From NCBI RefSeq assembly GCF_054482525.1, contig NZ_CM137006.1: a DNA stretch of 64,000 nucleotides; one strand, 5' to 3'. The notes below the pieces were generated by a model that worked only from the letters and a program-made list of their open reading frames with translations, searched no databases and was not told the DNA's origin. The translations under genes were made by a program, and so were the position numbers. Every line of letters starts with the position of its first letter. Positions within the stretch are counted from its first letter, which is position 1. This document shows, in pieces, positions 54,991 through 64,000 of the stretch.

Positions 54991-55073
54991 TGTGTCTCCC
55001 TCCATCAATGGCAGTCACCCTTAGTATGGTCACTGCCATGGATTCCTGATAGAAAGAGATTGCTAAAACATTC

Positions 55074-56237
55074 TTATCCAGCAATGTAATGCGGAACGAA
55101 ACGTGAGGTGTCTTTGGTGATCAGCGTGTTATCTTCACGGATCCCCATTCCGCACGCTTCATCATCGACAATCCAGCTACCGATGAGTGTGTAGCTATCG
55201 CCAAATCGCGGCAGAGGTTGAAACGCCTGGTAGATCATCGGTTCATCGGCGTAATCACCATCAGCGTGGTCAACGACGTTATTCTGACCGTCGAAAATGG
55301 TGACATTGCCGCCTTCGCGCGAGTAGATCGGTTTACGCACATAGCTTTCGCCAGCGGCAATCTGCGATTTTTCACCCTCAAACCAGGATGCAAGAAGGTT
55401 AGGATGACCAGGGAAGAAGCGCCAAAGCAGTGGCATTAGCCCTTTATTACTCAAGATACTTTTCCATAACGGCTCCACCCATTGCTCGCGACGCTTGCGC
55501 AGCAGCGGACCGTTATCGTCACGCATCATCCACTCTAGCGGATACAGCTTAAATGCACGCTGGATGACATTATCATCAAGATCGGTCAGTACGCCGCCGA
55601 CGCCCAAACCGAGATCTTCAATGTAGATAAACCGCGACTCCTGCCCTGCCTGCTGGGCGCAGTCCTGCAAGTACAGCACGGTACTCCTGTCTTCATCGGT
55701 GTCCTGACAGCAGCAAAAATAAAACGGTTCCCGACTGTAAAGCTCACTAAAGCGCGAAATCAGGCGTTCCTGAATAGCATTGTACTGATCGGCATCACGC
55801 GGAATAATGCCGCTGCGCCGGGCATCCTCCAGCCACAGCCACTGGAAATAAGCCGATTCATACAACGAGGTTGGCGTATCGGCGTTGTACTCCAGCAGCT
55901 TCACCGGCGCATTGCCACACCAGGCAAAATCCATCCGGCCATAGAGCGAAGGATCGCGTGCGCGCCAGCTTTCGGCGATCACATCCCAGTACAACGGCGG
56001 GATCGCCAGTTGCGTCAGGATCTCTTCGTCTTTAACCGCGCGATCCACCACCTCAAGGCACATCTGATGCAGTTCCGCAGTTGGTTTTTCGATCTGCTCT
56101 TCAATCTGACGCAGGGTAAAGCGGTAAGCCCGACTCTCATCCCAATAGATTTCATTGTCGATGATATGAAAGTCGAAACCGTTGTCAGCGGCGATCTGGT
56201 CCAGATCCCACCGTACAGGAACGTTGTGTCTCAGCAT
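55074..56237 (-). CDS. yjfC: glutathionylspermidine-synthase-like ATP-grasp protein
   Basis: 387 aa from internal Met. Confidence 0.9.
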   Translation of the reverse strand: MLRHNVPVRWDLDQIAADNGFDFHIIDNEIYWDESRAYRFTLRQIEEQIEKPTAELHQMCLEVVDRAVKDEEILTQLAIPPLYWDVIAESWRARDPSLYGRMDFAWCGNAPVKLLEYNADTPTSLYESAYFQWLWLEDARRSGIIPRDADQYNAIQERLISRFSELYSREPFYFCCCQDTDEDRSTVLYLQDCAQQAGQESRFIYIEDLGLGVGGVLTDLDDNVIQRAFKLYPLEWMMRDDNGPLLRKRREQWVEPLWKSILSNKGLMPLLWRFFPGHPNLLASWFEGEKSQIAAGESYVRKPIYSREGGNVTIFDGQNNVVDHADGDYADEPMIYQAFQPLPRFGDSYTLIGSWIVDDEACGMGIREDNTLITKDTSRFVPHYIAG

Positions 56238-56239
56238 GA

Positions 56240-56878
56240 TTAGCCTCCCCAATGCCCACGGGCGCTGGAAGAACGACCATAGCCGCCGCGAGAAACGGTT
56301 GACGCTTTTTTGGTGGTAAAGCCGCCCGAAGAATAGGACTCTTTTTTGCCAGAACCGGAGCGCCAGGAGTAATCACCGGAAGTGTTGCGCCAGACGGGGC
56401 GCGAAGCAAAAGAGGAACCGCCGCTGTTATACACAAACTGCTCGTCGCGATCTTTACGAATAACCCGGCTTAACAAAAATCCAGAAACAACCGGGATCCA
56501 ACTCTGTTCAACGTTGTCGTAGTAACAATTTTCATACTTAGACTGACAATTCTGCTGAGTCATATTCTTCGGAACATCGGCATAAAACGCCGCTTTGGCG
56601 TTGTTCCAGCCATGAGCACAGATATCTGAATTATTACCGTCATCAATACAATCCTGCACAGTCGAGTAAAACGTTCCGTCGCCGTCGTTATCGACATCGC
56701 CACTATCGCCACAACCTTTCAATACGAAAAAAGCGGCACCGCCCATTAGCGCCAACGTTAAGTATTTTTGTGCGTAACGATTGCGACGCGGTTCAAAAGG
56801 ATTATTCGGTCTACCAATGCGACTGATCGCTCCGTGACCAATTTTACTGTTATTTCTTGATTTGCGTTTTCTGGCCAT
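56240..56878 (-). CDS. yjfM: DUF1190-family protein, Gly/Ser-rich C-terminus
   Basis: 212 aa. Confidence 0.88.
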   Translation of the reverse strand: MARKRKSRNNSKIGHGAISRIGRPNNPFEPRRNRYAQKYLTLALMGGAAFFVLKGCGDSGDVDNDGDGTFYSTVQDCIDDGNNSDICAHGWNNAKAAFYADVPKNMTQQNCQSKYENCYYDNVEQSWIPVVSGFLLSRVIRKDRDEQFVYNSGGSSFASRPVWRNTSGDYSWRSGSGKKESYSSGGFTTKKASTVSRGGYGRSSSARGHWGG

Positions 56879-56887
56879 GATCGTCCA

Positions 56888-57286
56888 TTACCATGTCATA
56901 CAAGCTGCGTTAAAAATACCGCCAGCCAGTGCGGCGGTTCCCATAAACATTCCTGCTGCGGTATTGTGATTAATAATTTTTTCGCTTAATGCGGGCATAT
57001 AAAGTCTGACGCCAGCAAAAACGAGTAACTGAATCACCAGTGCGATCCCGCCCCAGGCGAAATAGTCTGGAATACTCACCGCATTGATTGCCGCACTGGA
57101 TAAGGGGATCACGTAACCCAACAATGTACCGCTGAACGCCAGTGACGCCGCGGTATTATTGTTTTTGATTAACTGCCATTCGTTGTGCGGTGTAATTTTA
57201 GAATAGATAAACAGAAAAATAATCACCATAGCCACGCCAATAAAAAAATAGGCACTAAAGGCAAGAAGAGAATCCAGTATATGCAT
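56888..57286 (-). CDS. yjfL: DUF350-family inner membrane protein
   Basis: 132 aa from internal Met; four hydrophobic helices. Confidence 0.88.
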   Translation of the reverse strand: MHILDSLLAFSAYFFIGVAMVIIFLFIYSKITPHNEWQLIKNNNTAASLAFSGTLLGYVIPLSSAAINAVSIPDYFAWGGIALVIQLLVFAGVRLYMPALSEKIINHNTAAGMFMGTAALAGGIFNAACMTW

Positions 57287-57303
57287 TGTAAACGTCCTTG
57301 TAA

Positions 57304-57963
57304 TTAACCAATAATATGAAGTGATGTCAGCGGGATATCGACACCCAACGCGCGCGAAAATAACCACTCTGGCTCGCCGAGATCGTTAAAAGATTCCTCA
57401 CCATTTAGCAGCAAATATTCGTAAGTATCTTCGGTTACTTGCCGTTGGTAGCCCATGGTAAAATTATGTACTTCCCATTTGGCATGGTTTTGATTTTCTA
57501 CTTTTTCCAGCATGTAGACGGGTTCGATATTTCCCGGTTCTTCGCTGTTAAAAAATCGCTGCCAGCGTTTTTCCTGCCAGTTTAAGGTCATTGCCCCCAT
57601 CGCTTTGGCATTGATCGTCTCGCGCCAGTGACTCTCTTTACTGATACCGTAGCTCTCTTCATAGACAAAGAGCTTGATATCATCAATGTCATCAATATTT
57701 TCGCCGCCGGTGGTATTGATTTGCAGAAACTCATCGCCTGAAGTGTAGTAGCGGAAAATCTGGCTACCGCCGCCCAGATCGATGTGACTGACAGCGGCTA
57801 CCGTAAATTCCTCACCCGGCAGCGCAATCAGCAATTCATCTTCCAGCAAACGAAACGCTAACGTGTCGAGCGTAAAGCCACTATTGAGATGCAGACCCAG
57901 CGGACCGCGAGCGATAGCAGGCTTATTATCCTTGCCAAACAGACGCTGGAAAAAACCAGACAT
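57304..57963 (-). CDS. yjfK: DUF2491-family protein
   Basis: 219 aa. Confidence 0.88.
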   Translation of the reverse strand: MSGFFQRLFGKDNKPAIARGPLGLHLNSGFTLDTLAFRLLEDELLIALPGEEFTVAAVSHIDLGGGSQIFRYYTSGDEFLQINTTGGENIDDIDDIKLFVYEESYGISKESHWRETINAKAMGAMTLNWQEKRWQRFFNSEEPGNIEPVYMLEKVENQNHAKWEVHNFTMGYQRQVTEDTYEYLLLNGEESFNDLGEPEWLFSRALGVDIPLTSLHIIG

Positions 57964-58013
57964 ATTTTATCCTTAAAATAGTTGCCAGCCTTGCAGTGAG
58001 GCTGGCAAAAAAA

Positions 58014-58712
58014 TTACTCGCCCTGTTGGCGTTGCAGTCTTGCTAATACATCCTGGGCGCTACTTTTATTGCTACCGCCTATTCCGGCTTCCGCCAGCTT
58101 TTCATCAAGATCGCGACCGTCTGCGACTTTTTCCAACTGTGCAGCAGCATCCAGGCGAGCCTGACGTTCGGCCTGACGCGTTTGCAGGCGTTTTAAGGAT
58201 TCTGCCGCTGTCGAAACGCTGGAAGATGCGCCAACGGTAGAGGTCGTTACAGCCTGTTGTGCACGCTGCATGGCTTCAGTGGCTTTAACGACTTCCATTT
58301 GCTGCTCAAACTGAGCGATACGCTGCGCTGTCGCTGTAACTGCTTTTTCCACGCCATCACGGGAGACTTCCAGATTCGACAACACTTGCTCTTCAGCGGT
58401 AATGAGATTCTCAAGGCGCGCGATTTCTTCAGCAACTTCGTTAATCAACGACGGATTAACGTTCTTGCTTAACGCTTCCAGCGCACGAGCTTCCAGACTG
58501 GCTTTGCGCTCACGTAAATCTTTCAGCTTATCGTGACTTAATTTCACCCGCGCCAGCAGATCAACGCGAGATTTTCCGGCTTTATCGAGTTCAGCTTTAG
58601 CGTCACGAATATGCTGTTCCAGCATGCGCACGCCCTGGGTTTCTTCAATGGATTCTTCCGCTTGGGAGATAAACGATTTCCCCAGCGTAAATAAACTTTT
58701 TAAAATTCCCAT
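58014..58712 (-). CDS. yjfJ: PspA/IM30-family coiled-coil protein
   Basis: 232 aa; heptad-rich, Ala/Glu/Gln/Arg-rich coiled-coil. Confidence 0.9.
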   Translation of the reverse strand: MGILKSLFTLGKSFISQAEESIEETQGVRMLEQHIRDAKAELDKAGKSRVDLLARVKLSHDKLKDLRERKASLEARALEALSKNVNPSLINEVAEEIARLENLITAEEQVLSNLEVSRDGVEKAVTATAQRIAQFEQQMEVVKATEAMQRAQQAVTTSTVGASSSVSTAAESLKRLQTRQAERQARLDAAAQLEKVADGRDLDEKLAEAGIGGSNKSSAQDVLARLQRQQGE

Positions 58713-58730
58713 AAATACCCGTCCTTGTAA

Positions 58731-59132
58731 TTAGTGTGAATATTCTTCTGTAATTTCAGCCAGATCCAATGCGTTATCTACCAGCGAGGTTATCTCAAGC
58801 AGGATATCTTCAAGAGAAGATTTAAGCGATAACGCCCCGAAAACAATGTAATACTCTTCCTGTTGTACGCTGGAGATCCCTACCGATGACAACGGCATCA
58901 TCTTCTGATTTCTTAATAAGAAGGTATTAAATTCATCTGGATTGCTGATACTACTTACCGGACAAATAAAGGTTTCGATAATCATTTGGCGGGAAGTAAA
59001 TAGAATATTGATTTGCAAATCGCCATAATCATTCATTTTAATAGTTAATGCGTTCTCGCCATTTGTTACATCAATATTTTGTTCAGGTACAGTTTGCAGC
59101 GCCGTCGCCAGCACCAACGGATTCCATGTCAT
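58731..59132 (-). CDS. yjfI: DUF2170-family protein
   Basis: 133 aa. Confidence 0.88.
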   Translation of the reverse strand: MTWNPLVLATALQTVPEQNIDVTNGENALTIKMNDYGDLQINILFTSRQMIIETFICPVSSISNPDEFNTFLLRNQKMMPLSSVGISSVQQEEYYIVFGALSLKSSLEDILLEITSLVDNALDLAEITEEYSH

Positions 59133-59211
59133 ATATTATTCCATATAAATTAAGTTTAAATATTAATAAAATGAATATTTGCAGTACGTAATTATCTTAC
59201 CAGCTAAACAC

Positions 59212-59239
59212 AAAAAAAAAACCATCCAAATCTGGATGG
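59212..59239 (-). terminator. rho-independent terminator (minus strand) downstream of dehydratase gene
   Basis: ccatcca/tggatgg stem with 4-nt loop followed on minus strand by T10. Confidence 0.6.
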
Positions 59240-59323
59240 CTATTTAGAAGAACCAAAAATTTAACGCTATGCATACGATAAAAAATGCGCCAGTCTACAT
59301 ACGCTGACGCTAATGATTAGTCA

Positions 59324-60925
59324 CTACAAGTCTAACGACCGCTTCCACAACATAAAGTCAAACTGTTCAAGTTTGTCTGCCTTCACGACGTAGTCCTTAC
59401 TGGCAGTTTCAATAACTTTTTCAAATAATTCTCTACTCACATCTTCCAGCGGAGTGCCGTCAATCACTGGGCCACAGTCGAAATCAATCATGTCAGACAA
59501 TCGTCTGGCAATCGTGCTGTTGGTGGATATTTTTAACACCGGAACAATCGGGTTACCGGTGGGCGTACCAAGACCCGTCGAGAAGATAACCACATTACAT
59601 CCTGCTGCTACCAATCCGGTTACCGCGTCCACGTCATTGCCCGGAGTACACACCAACGATAATCCACTATCGGGCATCGGTTCAGCGTAATCGCATACAC
59701 TCACAATTGGCGCTCGCCCGCCTTTTTTCGCTGCTCCGGTAGATTTTATTGCGTCAGTAATCAACCCATCCGCAATGTTGCCAAAACTTGGGTTATCCGC
59801 AATGGTGGTATCGAAAAAGTTCGCTGTCTTTTCGTAGCCTTGCATTAGATTGAGGAACTTTTTTTTATCCTCAAGATTAATACAACGCTTAACCATATCA
59901 CCTTCTGCCCCACATAATTCTGGAAATTCTGCTAACCCGGAAGCGCCACCAAGCGTTGTCAACCAGTCAGAAACCAGCCCCATTGCAGGGTTGCCGGAGA
60001 TACCAGAAAAACCATCGGAACCACCACACTTCATCCCCACTTTGAGACAGGAAAGAGGGACCTCTACTCTTTCTGTCGGCTTCACCGCTTTCATTGCCTC
60101 GAAAGTCTGCTGTAAAGCGGTCTGCATCATCCGCTCTTCGCTGTCCCACTCCTGTTGGAGAAAGTAGAGCGCAGGTTTATCAAATTCAGGATTACGTCTC
60201 GCCAGCGCATCCTTAAACATTTTCTGCTGCGCTTTTTCACATCCTAAACTGAATACCGTCATACCGATTACATTCGGATGGTCAGCATAAGCAGCTAATA
60301 CATCGCACATAGTTTCACAGTCTGAAGTTGCACCACCACAACCACTGGTGACCGTAATACAGCGAACACCTTCAATATGCGGGAACATTCTCGCGGTTTC
60401 GATCAGTTCATCGCTACCGGACGTCAGATTAAGAGCAAACTTTTTCAGTGAGTTATTGGTATAACCCAAAGCATCATTCAAAGCATTGGTTAACTTACTG
60501 ACATTACGGTTCTCGCAAAATACCAATGGAAAGACTAACCAGTAACTGGCAGTACCCACTCTGCCATCGTCACGGACATAACCTTTAAAAGTGCGGGTGC
60601 TCCATTCAGAGACATCCGGTGCCTGCCAGTGGTAGGGTTCAACATCCTCCAGTGTGACAGGAGCTGCATAGTGGCGAATATTATCAACGGTAATCGCTTC
60701 TCCCTTAACGATGGGACGCGTGGCCTTGCCAACTGGCGTACCGTACATCGAAACAATGCCATCCAGAGGAATATCTTGCGTCGCAAACTTATGTTTAGCC
60801 TTAACATCAGTTACTAACGTTATGTTGTCGTCATCCCACGAGTACGATTCTCCAGCGTGCAGGTCTTTCAACGCGACAATGAGATTATCGTTACTGTCGA
60901 TACGTAATATTTTTTGCATAATCAT
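59324..60925 (-). CDS. UxaA/GarD-family sugar-acid dehydratase (altronate / galactarate dehydratase-like)
   Basis: 533 aa; N-terminus resembles UxaA (MQYIKIHALDNVAVAL-type SAF region); Cys-rich central region; length between UxaA and GarD. Confidence 0.75.
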   Translation of the reverse strand: MIMQKILRIDSNDNLIVALKDLHAGESYSWDDDNITLVTDVKAKHKFATQDIPLDGIVSMYGTPVGKATRPIVKGEAITVDNIRHYAAPVTLEDVEPYHWQAPDVSEWSTRTFKGYVRDDGRVGTASYWLVFPLVFCENRNVSKLTNALNDALGYTNNSLKKFALNLTSGSDELIETARMFPHIEGVRCITVTSGCGGATSDCETMCDVLAAYADHPNVIGMTVFSLGCEKAQQKMFKDALARRNPEFDKPALYFLQQEWDSEERMMQTALQQTFEAMKAVKPTERVEVPLSCLKVGMKCGGSDGFSGISGNPAMGLVSDWLTTLGGASGLAEFPELCGAEGDMVKRCINLEDKKKFLNLMQGYEKTANFFDTTIADNPSFGNIADGLITDAIKSTGAAKKGGRAPIVSVCDYAEPMPDSGLSLVCTPGNDVDAVTGLVAAGCNVVIFSTGLGTPTGNPIVPVLKISTNSTIARRLSDMIDFDCGPVIDGTPLEDVSRELFEKVIETASKDYVVKADKLEQFDFMLWKRSLDL

Positions 60926-60952
60926 ATTCTTCCAGTCAGATGTTCAATCTTA

Positions 60953-62254
60953 TTAACTGTATGCTTTTGCTGCCTGTTGGCTCTTTTGCAGCAATCCAAT
61001 CAATAATGCGCAGCCGATAGTAATTACAGACAACGCCATCAATCCGGCGATGCTGCTATCCATTGCCCGATCAACCTCAACACGGATAAGAGGAGCAAGG
61101 AACGAGCAGAAAGCGCCCATCGTGGTGCAAAAACCGATCCCCGCAGCCAGTGCCGGACCAGTAAGAAGTTGTGGAGGGAAAGTCCAGAATATTGGCTGTA
61201 CTGAGAGGAAACCAACCGCACTTAAACAAAGTGCACCAATCGCCACAACAGGCCCCGCAAATGCGGAAAGGGCAAGGCCGACAGCAGCAGCCAACATACA
61301 CATAACCGAAATGGCCACACGCCGGGAAGGATTGCGGTCAGCAATTCGCGGAATGTAATAGACGCCAAAAGCAGAGCACGCCCATGGTATTGCCGCGACT
61401 AATGACTGCTTAAAGCCAAGGCTTTCTCCCATCAGCGATGCAACCTGTGACGGAAGGAAAAACATTAAACCATATACTGATATCTGGATGGTGCCGTAGA
61501 TTAATGCCAGATGCCAAACTTTGGCATTTTTCAATGCTGAAATCACTGAACTGGTTTCTGTTTTCTGTCGTTCAGATTCCAGTTGCTTATTCAAAGCGTC
61601 TTTTTCTTCCTGGGTAAGAAATCGCGCTTTCGTCGGATTATCATCAAGGTAGAACCAGGCAAAGATACCAAGCACTAATGCCGGCAATCCCTCAATGACA
61701 AACATCCAGAACCATCCTGGACGTCCCATCCAGCCATGTAGTTCAAGTAAAGCTCCCGATATTGGCGAACCGAGCGTTAACGCCAGCGGCACCCCCAACA
61801 CAAATATTCCCACGACCGATCCGCGAACCTTGTTAGGAAAATAAATGGATGCGAGCAGTAAAATGCCGGGATAGAACCCCGCCTCGCCCAGCCCTAACAG
61901 AAAGCGCAAAATAATAAATTGCGTTTCACTGGTGACAAATCCCGTCATTGCCGAGAGAAGGCCCCAAATTGCAGTTGTAATACTTAACCACTTTTGTGCG
62001 CCGATTTTATTGAGGATCAGGTTAGCTGGAATGCCGAAAAGTGCATAGGCAGCGAAAAATATTCCTGCACCGAGAGCGAATGCCGACTCTGATAATCCAA
62101 TATCCAGTTTCATTGCATCTTTGGCAAAGCCAACATTTACCCGATCAATAAAGGCAACAAAATACATTATGAACATTAAGGGTACTAAACGTTTCCACGA
62201 TTTTTGAATTGCGGAATTCAACAGCGGATTATCGTATTGGGTTATATTAGCCAT
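60953..62254 (-). CDS. ACS-family MFS transporter (hexuronate/aldarate transporter-like)
   Basis: 433 aa; N-terminal FIDRVNVGFA motif typical of ExuT/GudP/GarP-type transporters. Confidence 0.75.
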   Translation of the reverse strand: MANITQYDNPLLNSAIQKSWKRLVPLMFIMYFVAFIDRVNVGFAKDAMKLDIGLSESAFALGAGIFFAAYALFGIPANLILNKIGAQKWLSITTAIWGLLSAMTGFVTSETQFIILRFLLGLGEAGFYPGILLLASIYFPNKVRGSVVGIFVLGVPLALTLGSPISGALLELHGWMGRPGWFWMFVIEGLPALVLGIFAWFYLDDNPTKARFLTQEEKDALNKQLESERQKTETSSVISALKNAKVWHLALIYGTIQISVYGLMFFLPSQVASLMGESLGFKQSLVAAIPWACSAFGVYYIPRIADRNPSRRVAISVMCMLAAAVGLALSAFAGPVVAIGALCLSAVGFLSVQPIFWTFPPQLLTGPALAAGIGFCTTMGAFCSFLAPLIRVEVDRAMDSSIAGLMALSVITIGCALLIGLLQKSQQAAKAYS

Positions 62255-62304
62255 AAATAAATCCTTAGTTCTGTTGGTAAGATATTCTATTTATAGGTTT
62301 TATA

Positions 62305-63198
62305 TTATTTATAATAATCGGTGACAGATAAAATTTCCTGCAATCTCCGGGATTGAATATCATCAAGTATATTAAATGGTGAAGAACACCGTTCTGATTG
62401 AATAACCCCCTTTAACTGAAGGGCTTTTTTGAAAGTGGGAATAAAAGGAGAATTCACGCTGTAAACGGCCATTAGTTGATCGACTATCTGCTGATGCTGC
62501 GCGACTGCAAGTAAATCGTCATTCATGAATGCTTGCATCCAGGAGGCAAAAAATTCAGGGACAATATTGGATAAACCACCAATACAGCCATCTCCACCAG
62601 ATAGTATGTTGTGGGCAAAATTATTGTCATATCCTGCATACACTTCAAAATGAGGGATATTTTTCTTTACGGTATTGATAACCTGCGCAGTATGGAAAGC
62701 ATCAGGGACGGTATCTTTCATACCAATAATATTGGGATACTTATCTGCCAGTCGTAAACAAATCTCTGGTGATACGCTGTACCCGGTTCTCTCCGGGAAG
62801 TTATAAATAAAAATATGAGCCGGGGTTTGGCTTGCAATCGTACTGTAGAAATCAAAAATAGCTTCATCATCCAGAGGGAAATAATAAGGACTGATGATCA
62901 TCACACCATCCAATCCTTGCTCCCAGGCGTAATTGGCCAGTGATATTGATTCATTGACGTCCATGCGACTGGCTCCGGCATAAGCCTTCATATCGCCTCG
63001 GGAAAACTCACTACAGGTTTTAATCATTTGGCGGGCGTTTTCCATATTAAGCGAAAAAAACTCACCAGTACTGCCCATCACAACAAACCCGGACACGTGA
63101 TTTTTAATAAAATCATAAACCTGAGTGTTTTGCTCTGGATCGATTCGCCCTTGTTCATCAAATATGGTGACAACGGGGGTTATGTAACGACTTTTCAT
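62305..63198 (-). CDS. DapA/NAL-family Schiff-base lyase (candidate 2-keto-3-deoxy sugar-acid aldolase or 5-dehydro-4-deoxyglucarate dehydratase)
   Basis: 297 aa; GSTGE motif, YNFPERTGY motif and catalytic-lysine context IGMKDT match the DHDPS/NAL family. Confidence 0.75.
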   Translation of the reverse strand: MKSRYITPVVTIFDEQGRIDPEQNTQVYDFIKNHVSGFVVMGSTGEFFSLNMENARQMIKTCSEFSRGDMKAYAGASRMDVNESISLANYAWEQGLDGVMIISPYYFPLDDEAIFDFYSTIASQTPAHIFIYNFPERTGYSVSPEICLRLADKYPNIIGMKDTVPDAFHTAQVINTVKKNIPHFEVYAGYDNNFAHNILSGGDGCIGGLSNIVPEFFASWMQAFMNDDLLAVAQHQQIVDQLMAVYSVNSPFIPTFKKALQLKGVIQSERCSSPFNILDDIQSRRLQEILSVTDYYK

Positions 63199-63526
63199 GC
63201 CTACCTCATCATAGTTTTATTGTTCATATATACAAACAACGTTTTTAAATACAAACTAAAATGAGTATACCCAACCTCAGAAATGAGTCAAATTTAGCCA
63301 ATCACAGAAGTAATACACATAAGATATTGATATATTTGGAGTAATTATGCAGGGGGCCTGCATAAAAAACAATCACAGTTCTTTTTTTATCCGTTTTATG
63401 ACCAGTATCACGCTAAAAAAGGACTGATGGGGTCAACAGCAGTCAAGGAACGCGAGGGGGTTAATTTACTTGAATTATAATTCTCCCTAGAATGGTGCAT
63501 TACTCATGGTAAGGGAAATAGTCATT

Positions 63527-64000
63527 ATGGAACATAAGCCTACCATCCGGGTGTTAGAGATACTGGAAGCACTGGCAGCGGAGAATCAGGGTGTTTCATT
63601 AACTCACCTTTCGGAAAAAACAGGCATCCTGAAAGGAACGATTTTTCCCATCCTCAAAACGCTGGTTGAACAGCGGTACATCAGTTATGACGCTAATACC
63701 CAGCTTTATAATCTGGGGATCTCCTGCTCGATTCTGTCCCGTGCTTTCCTCGACAGATCGTACTGGTTAAAAATGGTTTACAAAGAGATGAACAACATTG
63801 TCAAAGAGTGCAATGAAGTTTGTCAGATGGGGATCCTGGACGGTGCAGATGTTTTATATATCAATAAGGTGCAGGCGGCACAAACCGTACAACTGGTTTC
63901 ACATATTGGGACTCGTCTGCCTGCTATCTATTCTGCGCTGGGAAAAGCCATTATCTGTGAATACAGTGATCAACAAATTCGGCAACTCTACCCTGACGGT
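63527..64000 (+). CDS. IclR-family transcriptional regulator, N-terminal 158 codons (3' end outside window)
   Basis: ATG at 63527; N-terminal winged HTH typical of IclR regulators; divergent from the catabolic genes. Confidence 0.7.
   Translation, partial: MEHKPTIRVLEILEALAAENQGVSLTHLSEKTGILKGTIFPILKTLVEQRYISYDANTQLYNLGISCSILSRAFLDRSYWLKMVYKEMNNIVKECNEVCQMGILDGADVLYINKVQAAQTVQLVSHIGTRLPAIYSALGKAIICEYSDQQIRQLYPDG

Follow-up and report, generated by a model that had tools for sequence, protein, structure and literature searches.

What does a bacterium gain by keeping, in one compact run of genes, a membrane-binding protein of the PspA/IM30 family and an ATP-grasp ligase that resembles glutathionylspermidine synthetases? 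The question is posed by yjfI, yjfJ, yjfK, yjfL, yjfM and yjfC, six co-directional open reading frames (ORFs) on the minus strand at positions 55074-59132 of a 64,000-nucleotide stretch of contig NZ_CM137006.1 (NCBI RefSeq assembly GCF_054482525.1), referred to here in its full length as the window. The window is 100% identical to Escherichia coli PCN033, whose RefSeq annotation holds the same six genes, and the six-gene block belongs to the core genome: 5425 of 5426 complete E. coli genomes have it, at a fixed place in the chromosome. The best explanation overall for yjfIJKLMC, to which we would give an even chance, is an inner-membrane maintenance module built around a YjfJ-type PspA protein (bacterial ESCRT-III) and composed of separable sub-modules; that the six genes form one functionally linked envelope-maintenance system is somewhat on the probable side of even.

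The identities of the genes are as good as certain, with Pfam, the PDB and RefSeq in concordance. From the 5' end, yjfI (58731-59132; 133 amino acids) encodes a DUF2170 protein (Pfam E-value 8e-44), yjfJ (58014-58712; 232 amino acids) a PspA_IM30 protein (5e-58), yjfK (57304-57963; 219 amino acids) a DUF2491 protein (2e-71), yjfL (56888-57286; 132 amino acids) a DUF350 protein (1e-33), yjfM (56240-56878; 212 amino acids) a DUF1190 protein (7e-18) and yjfC (55074-56237; 387 amino acids) a GSP_synth protein (4e-149), all six matches far exceeding the gathering cut-offs. Intergenic gaps, followed from yjfI to yjfC, are 18, 50, 17, 9 and 2 bp. The RefSeq start of yjfC is an ATG at 56237, and its longest ORF runs from a TTG at 56252. 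Relaxed Pfam scans revealed no second family, and an Rfam scan of the whole region returned no RNA family. A first-pass annotation, made from the DNA letters alone, had described six tightly packed co-directional genes of these families; the ORF positions, the strand and the gaps of 2-50 bp bear this description out, and the families that it named are exactly those of Pfam.

The same annotation called the module functionally unassigned, and this claim stands only in part. No paper was found that gives a function for the module as a whole, but parts of it have already been characterised through YjfC and YgiC structures and ligase activity, a described gene neighbourhood, a heat-adaptation iModulon and tolC genetics. 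Its suggestion of an envelope-stress or conjugation role is one that the literature proposes likewise. The exact neighbourhood was described by Ravi et al. 2024 (mSystems, PMC11237479) as the third of their CesT/Tir-PspA operon groups, which has in common with the E. coli locus the DUF2170-PspA dyad, the ATP-grasp ligase, DUF350, DUF1190 and DUF2491; YjfI was there considered CesT/Tir-like, DUF1190 was termed a 'metal-chelating lipoprotein', and the ligase was related to glutathionylspermidine synthetase with no substrate named. The prototype of that group includes a ligand-gated K+ channel, which is absent from yjfIJKLMC. The locus is real and already known, a member of the Ravi operon class minus its K+ channel. 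The same authors found that other operon types independently join PspA, polyamine enzymes and DUF350. In heat-evolved strains yjfIJKL, grouped as the 'YjfJ iModulon', are strongly induced, and their forced expression from a plasmid increased the growth rate at 42 °C more than 1.21-fold. One paper names a transcription unit yjfIJ; that the six are co-transcribed is an assumption. What is added here is the dissection into sub-modules, the loss of the channel and a hairpin where it once stood, a T-tract switch upstream, phage-borne gene pairs and a hypothesis for the substrate of the ligase.

The arrangement of the module was followed across genomes by collecting 155 DUF1190 representatives and retrieving 47 genomic loci with a DUF1190 alignment, to which two enteric loci were added to give the 49 that underlie the counts below. 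The 47-locus search used an alignment of 12 sequences, so that the sample is biased towards tails of the form RGGFGSx[AS]AA, and loci were annotated with hidden Markov models built from the six E. coli proteins. The full set of families, arranged as I-J-(channel)-K-L-M-C, is present in 31 of the 49, spread over several gammaproteobacterial orders (Endozoicomonas, Aliivibrio, Lysobacter, the Pseudomonas syringae group, Marinobacterium, Thiotrichaceae and Ectothiorhodospiraceae), and the same order is found in Citrobacter, Enterobacter and E. fergusonii. Judged on these gene orders, the arrangement is conserved far beyond chance. Departures from it include Rahnella, which lacks yjfI, Dyella, which lacks yjfL, and loci in Rhodobacteraceae that consist of ligase and DUF1190 only. 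The ligase gene adjoins the DUF1190 gene in 45 of the 49 loci, and did so in all four further DUF1190 genes picked from distant representatives. Read in this comparative light, the module is assembled from separable units, namely I-J, a K+ channel that may be absent, K-L and M-C.

At the head of the module, YjfJ matches the PspA_IM30 profile over its full length (residues 2-232 on profile positions 1-220; 196.7 bits against a cut-off of 33.9) and is the presumed membrane-binding effector, as a coiled-coil member of the PspA/IM30 (bacterial ESCRT-III) family; a search of the PDB with its sequence gave no match. YjfI scores 149 bits against DUF2170 (cut-off 27) and is related to the crystal structure of BacA (8Q8O) at 1.2e-16, and with the fold taken from the literature and from this match it is predicted to be a dimeric CesT/Tir-like chaperone-fold protein and the cytoplasmic partner of YjfJ. 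In the bacABCDEF operon of P. aeruginosa (PA3732-PA3727) the BacA-BacB dyad corresponds to YjfI-YjfJ: there is a crystal structure of BacA, the BacA-BacB complex has been predicted (AlphaFold2 (AF2) interaction probability 0.981) and an interaction reported, and BacB rises upon osmotic shock. The bac operon is supported by reverse-transcription PCR and has biofilm and virulence phenotypes, and its authors note a 'very different' organisation. It was considered as a homologue of the whole yjf module and rejected, since only the dyad is held in common; the other bac genes, among them a 76-kDa protein (PA3729) and a 23-kDa transmembrane (TM) protein (PA3730), are unlike those of yjf, and a sigma-54 site proposed there is absent here. 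YjfI likewise falls well below the BacA equivalog NF050185 (94.3 bits against a cut-off of 300, the match covering no more than the model's C-terminal 120 residues), and when a Pseudomonas YjfI was used as query in a protein search, P. aeruginosa did not appear among the top matches.

Of the two proteins that follow, YjfK is beta-rich, has no signal peptide and carries residues that are invariant in the alignment (R71, Y73, Q81, E153, E182 and E189); a DUF2491 profile search of the PDB found no relative. We infer that it works in the cytoplasm as an enzyme or sensor and has a conserved polar site. YjfL, a four-helix DUF350 protein annotated in K-12 as 'inner membrane protein', would by analogy with LiaI or PspBC be a candidate membrane partner or anchor. 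A structure-based analysis by Rychel et al. 2025 made YjfK an outer-membrane porin and YjfI a periplasmic lipoprotein. These localisations conflict with the lack of a signal peptide in either protein, with the chaperone fold of the BacA structure and with Ravi et al. (PMC11237479), where both are predicted to be cytoplasmic.

Between these two parts, at the junction of yjfJ and yjfK, the comparison reveals a gene that E. coli no longer has. In 17 of the 49 loci the junction holds a K+ channel gene with Ion_trans_2 and TrkA_N/RCK domains; in Enterobacter it is intact and overlaps both neighbours, in one Salmonella it is split into two ORFs, and in Citrobacter, E. fergusonii and E. coli it has been lost, the J-K gap of E. 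coli being only 50 bp. The channel is replaced by a rhomboid protease gene in the P. syringae group. Examples of what relatives carry at this junction, channel or rhomboid gene, lie, in the coordinates of the retrieved loci, at L053:3935-5020, L004:6958-8028, L007:5841-6908 and L045:6235-6789. Directly 3' of the yjfJ stop codon in the window is a GC-rich hairpin with a 10-bp stem (57982-58008, minus strand; dG -18.5, z -3.1), the stem of which is kept with differing loops in K-12 and in E. fergusonii (z -5.2) and is weaker in C. freundii (z -1.4). Because the channel is present in relatives and lost in Escherichia, the E. coli hairpin marks the scar of the lost gene. It is also a candidate partial terminator or stabiliser of the mRNA 3' end that would give more YjfI and YjfJ than downstream products, and the partial-terminator reading fits both the 'yjfIJ operon' label and the high copy number expected of a polymer-forming protein. 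A natural split at the same junction was seen on one metagenomic contig (L056:2580-7739), where the DUF2170-PspA dyad is divergent from a channel-DUF2491-DUF350-DUF1190-ligase run.

The distal pair, yjfM and yjfC, brings in the chemistry. YjfC scores 497 bits against GSP_synth and matches the PDB entry 7UK6_A, 'acid--amine ligase YjfC', at 3.4e-272 over residues 1-387; crystal structures exist of YjfC (7UK6 and 7UK7) and of its paralogue YgiC (7UK8 and 7UKA), and PDB chains of Gss, the bifunctional glutathionylspermidine synthetase/amidase, and of trypanothione synthetase are matched at 1e-32 to 7e-38. With these two enzymes YjfC shares a homologous ATP-grasp synthetase domain. Gss, however, has 619 amino acids with an N-terminal CHAP amidase, whereas YjfC, at 387 amino acids, comprises the synthetase part only, a stand-alone ATP-grasp ligase, and scores 164.7 against the NCBIfam model PRK10507, for which the cut-off is 882; lacking the amidase domain and falling below the equivalog cut-off, it is not Gss. 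According to Pederick et al. 2023, YjfC and YgiC are peptide-spermidine ligases in vitro, and both bear the product name peptide--spermidine ligase in the K-12 RefSeq annotation; YgiC reportedly has no glutathionylspermidine synthetase activity, according to Sui et al. 2012, who compared YjfC too. The two ligases are 51% identical and their partners YjfM and YgiB 23% (E-value 3e-12), so that the pairs are paralogous. The ygiB-ygiC pair has the same tail (TRGGFG...SMGG) and a parallel function in the tolC phenotype, in that a tolC mutant reportedly grows still more poorly when YgiBC and YjfMC are lost (Dhamdhere and Zgurskaya 2010). Unlike yjfMC, ygiBC adjoins tolC and responds to Cpx, and there are no genes for PspA, DUF2170, DUF2491 or DUF350 beside it.

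It is the partner of the ligase that suggests a substrate. YjfM is a lipoprotein-like DUF1190 protein with four invariant cysteines, a folded core at residues 68-170 in the AF2 model and a disordered tail, SRGGYG...HWGG-COOH; a Foldseek search of the DUF1190 core against the PDB found nothing with an E-value below 1. The lipobox cysteine is nearly invariant in the family, most members having typical L-A-G-C boxes, and that of E. coli YjfM is an atypical L-K-G-C that follows a basic N-terminus of 40 residues. Tail statistics were drawn from 122 DUF1190 representatives of at least 150 residues and mutually less than 50% identical. Their sequences end in Gly-Gly in 96 cases and in Gly-Ser in 15 (111 of the 122 together), the commonest endings being WGG (53), FGG (16) and WGS (10), which make up 79 of the 111, and the exceptions look frameshifted. 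An SRGGFG motif stands 10-35 residues before the terminus across a spacer of variable length. In YjfM the two terminal positions have entropies of 0.0 and 0.33 bits across the 49 loci, against 2-3 bits in YjfI, YjfJ, YjfK and YjfC. That the terminal residues are kept despite a variable spacer argues for a role of the free DUF1190 C-terminus. The E. coli tail peptide, ...SRGGYGRSSSARGHWGG, is thus the putative YjfC acceptor, with ASTVSRGGYGRSSSARGHWGG as the candidate substrate.

The structure of the pair was approached with an AF2 fusion of YjfC, a 30-residue linker and the last 40 residues of YjfM, run on a paired alignment of 20 genomes, and the outcome is suggestive only. In this fusion the segment TTKKASTVSRGGYGRSSSAR, the SRGGYG region, reached a predicted local distance difference test (pLDDT) score of 71-76 as a beta-strand with a short helix, against about 30 for the linker; in YjfM modelled alone the same segment stood at a pLDDT of about 50 and had no secondary structure. 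The ATP-grasp domain of Gss joins a C-terminal glycine carboxylate to spermidine. Since Gss thereby activates the glycine carboxylate of glutathione, and since YjfC amidates peptide C-termini with spermidine, the nearly invariant [W/F]-Gly-Gly-COOH tail of DUF1190 proteins may be the physiological spermidine acceptor of the adjacent YjfC or YgiC ligase, modified probably before export; this we put forward tentatively, as the reading that is simplest, at well short of an even chance. Precedents for the modification of a C-terminal carboxylate exist. RimK, which acts on ribosomal protein S6, and tubulin tyrosine ligase are ATP-grasp modifiers of protein C-termini. In eukaryotes a diglycine C-terminus is joined to spermidine as an amide in SUMO-spermidine. 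In all of these either the enzyme family or the acceptor differs, and the likeness is one of analogy only. We know of no bacterial lipoprotein that is polyaminated.

The M-C pair also travels by itself. From the gene neighbourhoods it is portable, standing alone as ygiBC, in Rhodobacteraceae and in large phages. Ligase homologues occur in 130 phage records, and on two phage-like contigs with NAMPT and RNA-ligase genes a DUF1190 gene is followed directly by the ligase (L057:6001-7759 and L058:6001-7802). In 50AhydR13PP (L060:1345-3697), the single Aeromonas T4-like phage that was inspected, a lipoprotein ending in GFGSSGG lies two genes upstream of a 'glutathionylspermidine synthase'. In tblastn searches DUF1190 also has matches in Vequintavirinae-type phages of Klebsiella, Cronobacter and Proteus, and the one record examined, Klebsiella phage KB57 (L061:2462-3031), encodes a DUF1190 lipoprotein with a complete SRGGFG...SFGG tail and no ligase gene nearby. 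The idea that the tail is lost where the ligase is lost was tried on the Klebsiella Vequintavirinae and failed: the KB57 tail is full, and the short tblastn match that had hinted otherwise was a low-complexity artefact.

Taken together, the parts could work as follows. YjfI would hold or deliver YjfJ, and YjfJ would bind the inner membrane on its cytoplasmic side and stabilise it there during stress, heat for example; these roles are drawn from family membership and from homologues, the phenotype that has been shown being heat tolerance upon yjfIJKL overexpression. YjfK, with its polar site, would serve in the cytoplasm and YjfL as its four-TM membrane partner, a unit ancestrally preceded by an RCK-type K+ channel. 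YjfC would amidate the tail of its DUF1190 partner with spermidine, in parallel with Gss, and so place a polycationic C-terminus on an envelope lipoprotein, and the polyaminated YjfM would then act in the envelope alongside the PspA-like membrane stabiliser. The post-yjfJ hairpin probably lowers expression of what lies downstream, and yjfMC would be at least partly decoupled from yjfIJKL.

Several observations weigh against this picture and against tail polyamination in particular. The locus has no PspBC or PspF partners. The YjfJ iModulon comprises yjfIJKL only, leaving yjfM and yjfC outside. According to one review YjfJ reportedly does not form the large rings of PspA; a homology model in the literature points the other way. 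No match to the sigma-54 consensus TGGCAC-N5-TTGC, with up to two mismatches allowed, is present in 59133-59323. With pspABCDE/pspF/pspG the yjf module has in common a PspA/IM30 effector and a membrane-stress context, but it is without PspB/PspC, PspF and a sigma-54 promoter and has in their place a chaperone-fold protein, DUF350 and polyamine chemistry; for want of a sigma-54 site and of PspBC it is not a canonical Psp regulon. As regards the tail, the lipobox and the Cys-rich core of YjfM, with its four invariant cysteines, imply that it should be periplasmic, and YjfC, which has no signal peptide and needs ATP, is predicted to be cytoplasmic. A return of the tail to the cytoplasm through the conserved hydrophobic DUF1190 segment WIPVVSGFLL as a TM helix was considered and rejected, its Kyte-Doolittle hydropathy (KD15) of about 1.2 being borderline and AF2 placing it as beta-strands within the confident core; on this prediction, modification of the tail would have to precede export. 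The terminal GHWGG has a pLDDT below 50 in the AF2 fusion. Finally, four Photobacterium loci and phage KB57 keep the tail although no ligase gene adjoins it; there a ligase of the host, or a paralogue, could act in trans.

Some of these points also speak for a different account of the distal genes. In it the ligase would convert a free cytoplasmic peptide, rather than YjfM, into a small soluble peptide-polyamine conjugate; YjfM would bind a metal or ligand in the periplasm, its tail would serve a partner (YjfL, for example), sorting or protease recognition, and YjfL is perhaps an exporter of the conjugate. Besides the predicted positions of ligase and lipoprotein on opposite sides of the membrane, the unplaced GHWGG and the tail-bearing DUF1190 genes without an adjacent ligase, this account draws on the published in-vitro activity, which is described for peptides, and on the metal-chelating label of Ravi et al. 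(PMC11237479) together with the four cysteines. It leaves unexplained, however, why the terminal residues should be the most conserved positions of the protein across a spacer of variable length, and why phages and Rhodobacteraceae should carry the pair only, and it sits uneasily with the order that the SRGGFG region gains beside the ligase in the AF2 fusion; we regard it as possible but rather doubtful. One might go further and take yjfIJ(KL) and yjfMC as neighbouring units with independent functions, their adjacency inherited without present coupling in E. coli. The restriction of the iModulon to yjfIJKL, the 'yjfIJ' naming in one paper and the conserved hairpin after yjfJ all speak for this, as do the occurrence of the I-J dyad with other partners in P. 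aeruginosa, its divergent orientation in one metagenomic locus, the M-C pair alone as ygiBC, in Rhodobacteraceae and in phages, and the variants without I, L or C. It is nonetheless an unlikely account: the gene order and the tight or overlapping spacing persist across several gammaproteobacterial orders, gaps of 9 and 2 bp are too short for a promoter, and associations of PspA, polyamine enzymes and DUF350 arise independently in other operon types (PMC11237479). A hairpin within yjfL (56918-56938) was examined as a cause of the absence of yjfMC from the iModulon and set aside, with a z of -0.37, no better than shuffles.

One might also imagine a role in anti-phage defence or another conflict, with membrane remodelling and a ligase as its tools, given the DUF1190 and ligase homologues in phages and the response of PspA-family proteins to phage secretin stress. 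It is very improbable: PADLOC gave no meaningful match, only weak coiled-coil noise, Pfam found no nuclease, toxin or sensor domains, and the block belongs to the core genome at a fixed site (5425 of 5426 genomes) rather than to a variable defence island. Of the accounts weighed here, the YjfJ-type membrane-maintenance module remains the one that we prefer.

The control region of the module lies upstream of yjfI and is bounded by an intrinsic-terminator hairpin at 59222-59241 (minus strand; dG -12.6 kcal/mol, z -4.1, followed by a U-run), which belongs to rlmB in K-12 and to the last island gene here, is kept relative to K-12 and forms the upstream limit. Transcription would start within the 80 bp that follow this terminator. 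On the same strand a T-tract at 59212-59221 ends 80 nt upstream of the yjfI ATG and is T10 in the window and in PCN033 and T9 in K-12. Table S1 of Rychel et al. records, at position 4410053, a deletion (T)9->8, intergenic (+47/-80) between rlmB and yjfI, and this contraction is the laboratory-evolution mutation that switches on yjfIJKL in heat-evolved K-12. Because shortening at this very site activates yjfIJKL, natural variation in the length of the tract may tune expression of the operon. The remaining 79 bp (59133-59211, minus strand) are AT-rich, at least 95% identical to K-12 and a putative, unmapped promoter; they contain the -10-like sequences TGgTAAGAT (59202-59194) and GATAAT (59196-59191), and a simple sigma-70 scan found nothing in 59133-59211. 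A sigma-54 promoter before yjfI, as proposed for bacA of P. aeruginosa, was rejected because no consensus match is present, and Mace et al. report no RpoN site at E. coli yjfJ.

Beyond this region the first-pass annotation had placed a foreign island against yjfI, and such an island is indeed there. In PCN033 it lies between rlmB and yjfI as a four-gene insertion of a UxaA-family hydrolase, an MFS transporter, a DHDPS-family enzyme and an IclR regulator; it is absent from K-12 and is carried by 512 of 5426 complete E. coli genomes. It spans 59246-64000 and runs past the window, with the hydrolase at 59324-60925, the transporter at 60953-62254 and a GC content of about 0.40 at its far end. Strains without the island align with the window only as far as about 59245, so that the insertion point falls between the stop codon and the terminator of rlmB, and the yjfI control region is left intact. 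From its gene content it looks like a sugar-acid catabolic islet.

At the opposite end of the module no clean intrinsic terminator was found downstream of yjfC. The 83-bp spacer between yjfC and aidB contains a long and very stable inverted repeat (54995-55059, minus strand; dG -40.3 kcal/mol over a 101-nt stretch, z -5.8) that lies directly upstream of the aidB start codon. No U-run follows the repeat, which makes it unlikely to be a terminator of yjfC, and it is probably part of the aidB control region instead.

The yjf locus, a textbook 'y-ome' operon, is among the few PspA/ESCRT-III-type systems in E. coli that are still without a mechanism; it joins membrane repair to polyamine chemistry, and its activation aids growth at high temperature. 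Were polyamination of the DUF1190 tail to prove true, it would supply a physiological substrate for the orphan ligases YjfC and YgiC, and with it a new bacterial post-translational modification, and it would explain both the dependence of tolC mutants on the YjfMC and YgiBC pairs and the carriage of such pairs by phages. It would then be the first bacterial system for polyamination of a protein C-terminus, a functional parallel to SUMO-spermidine brought about by an unrelated enzyme.

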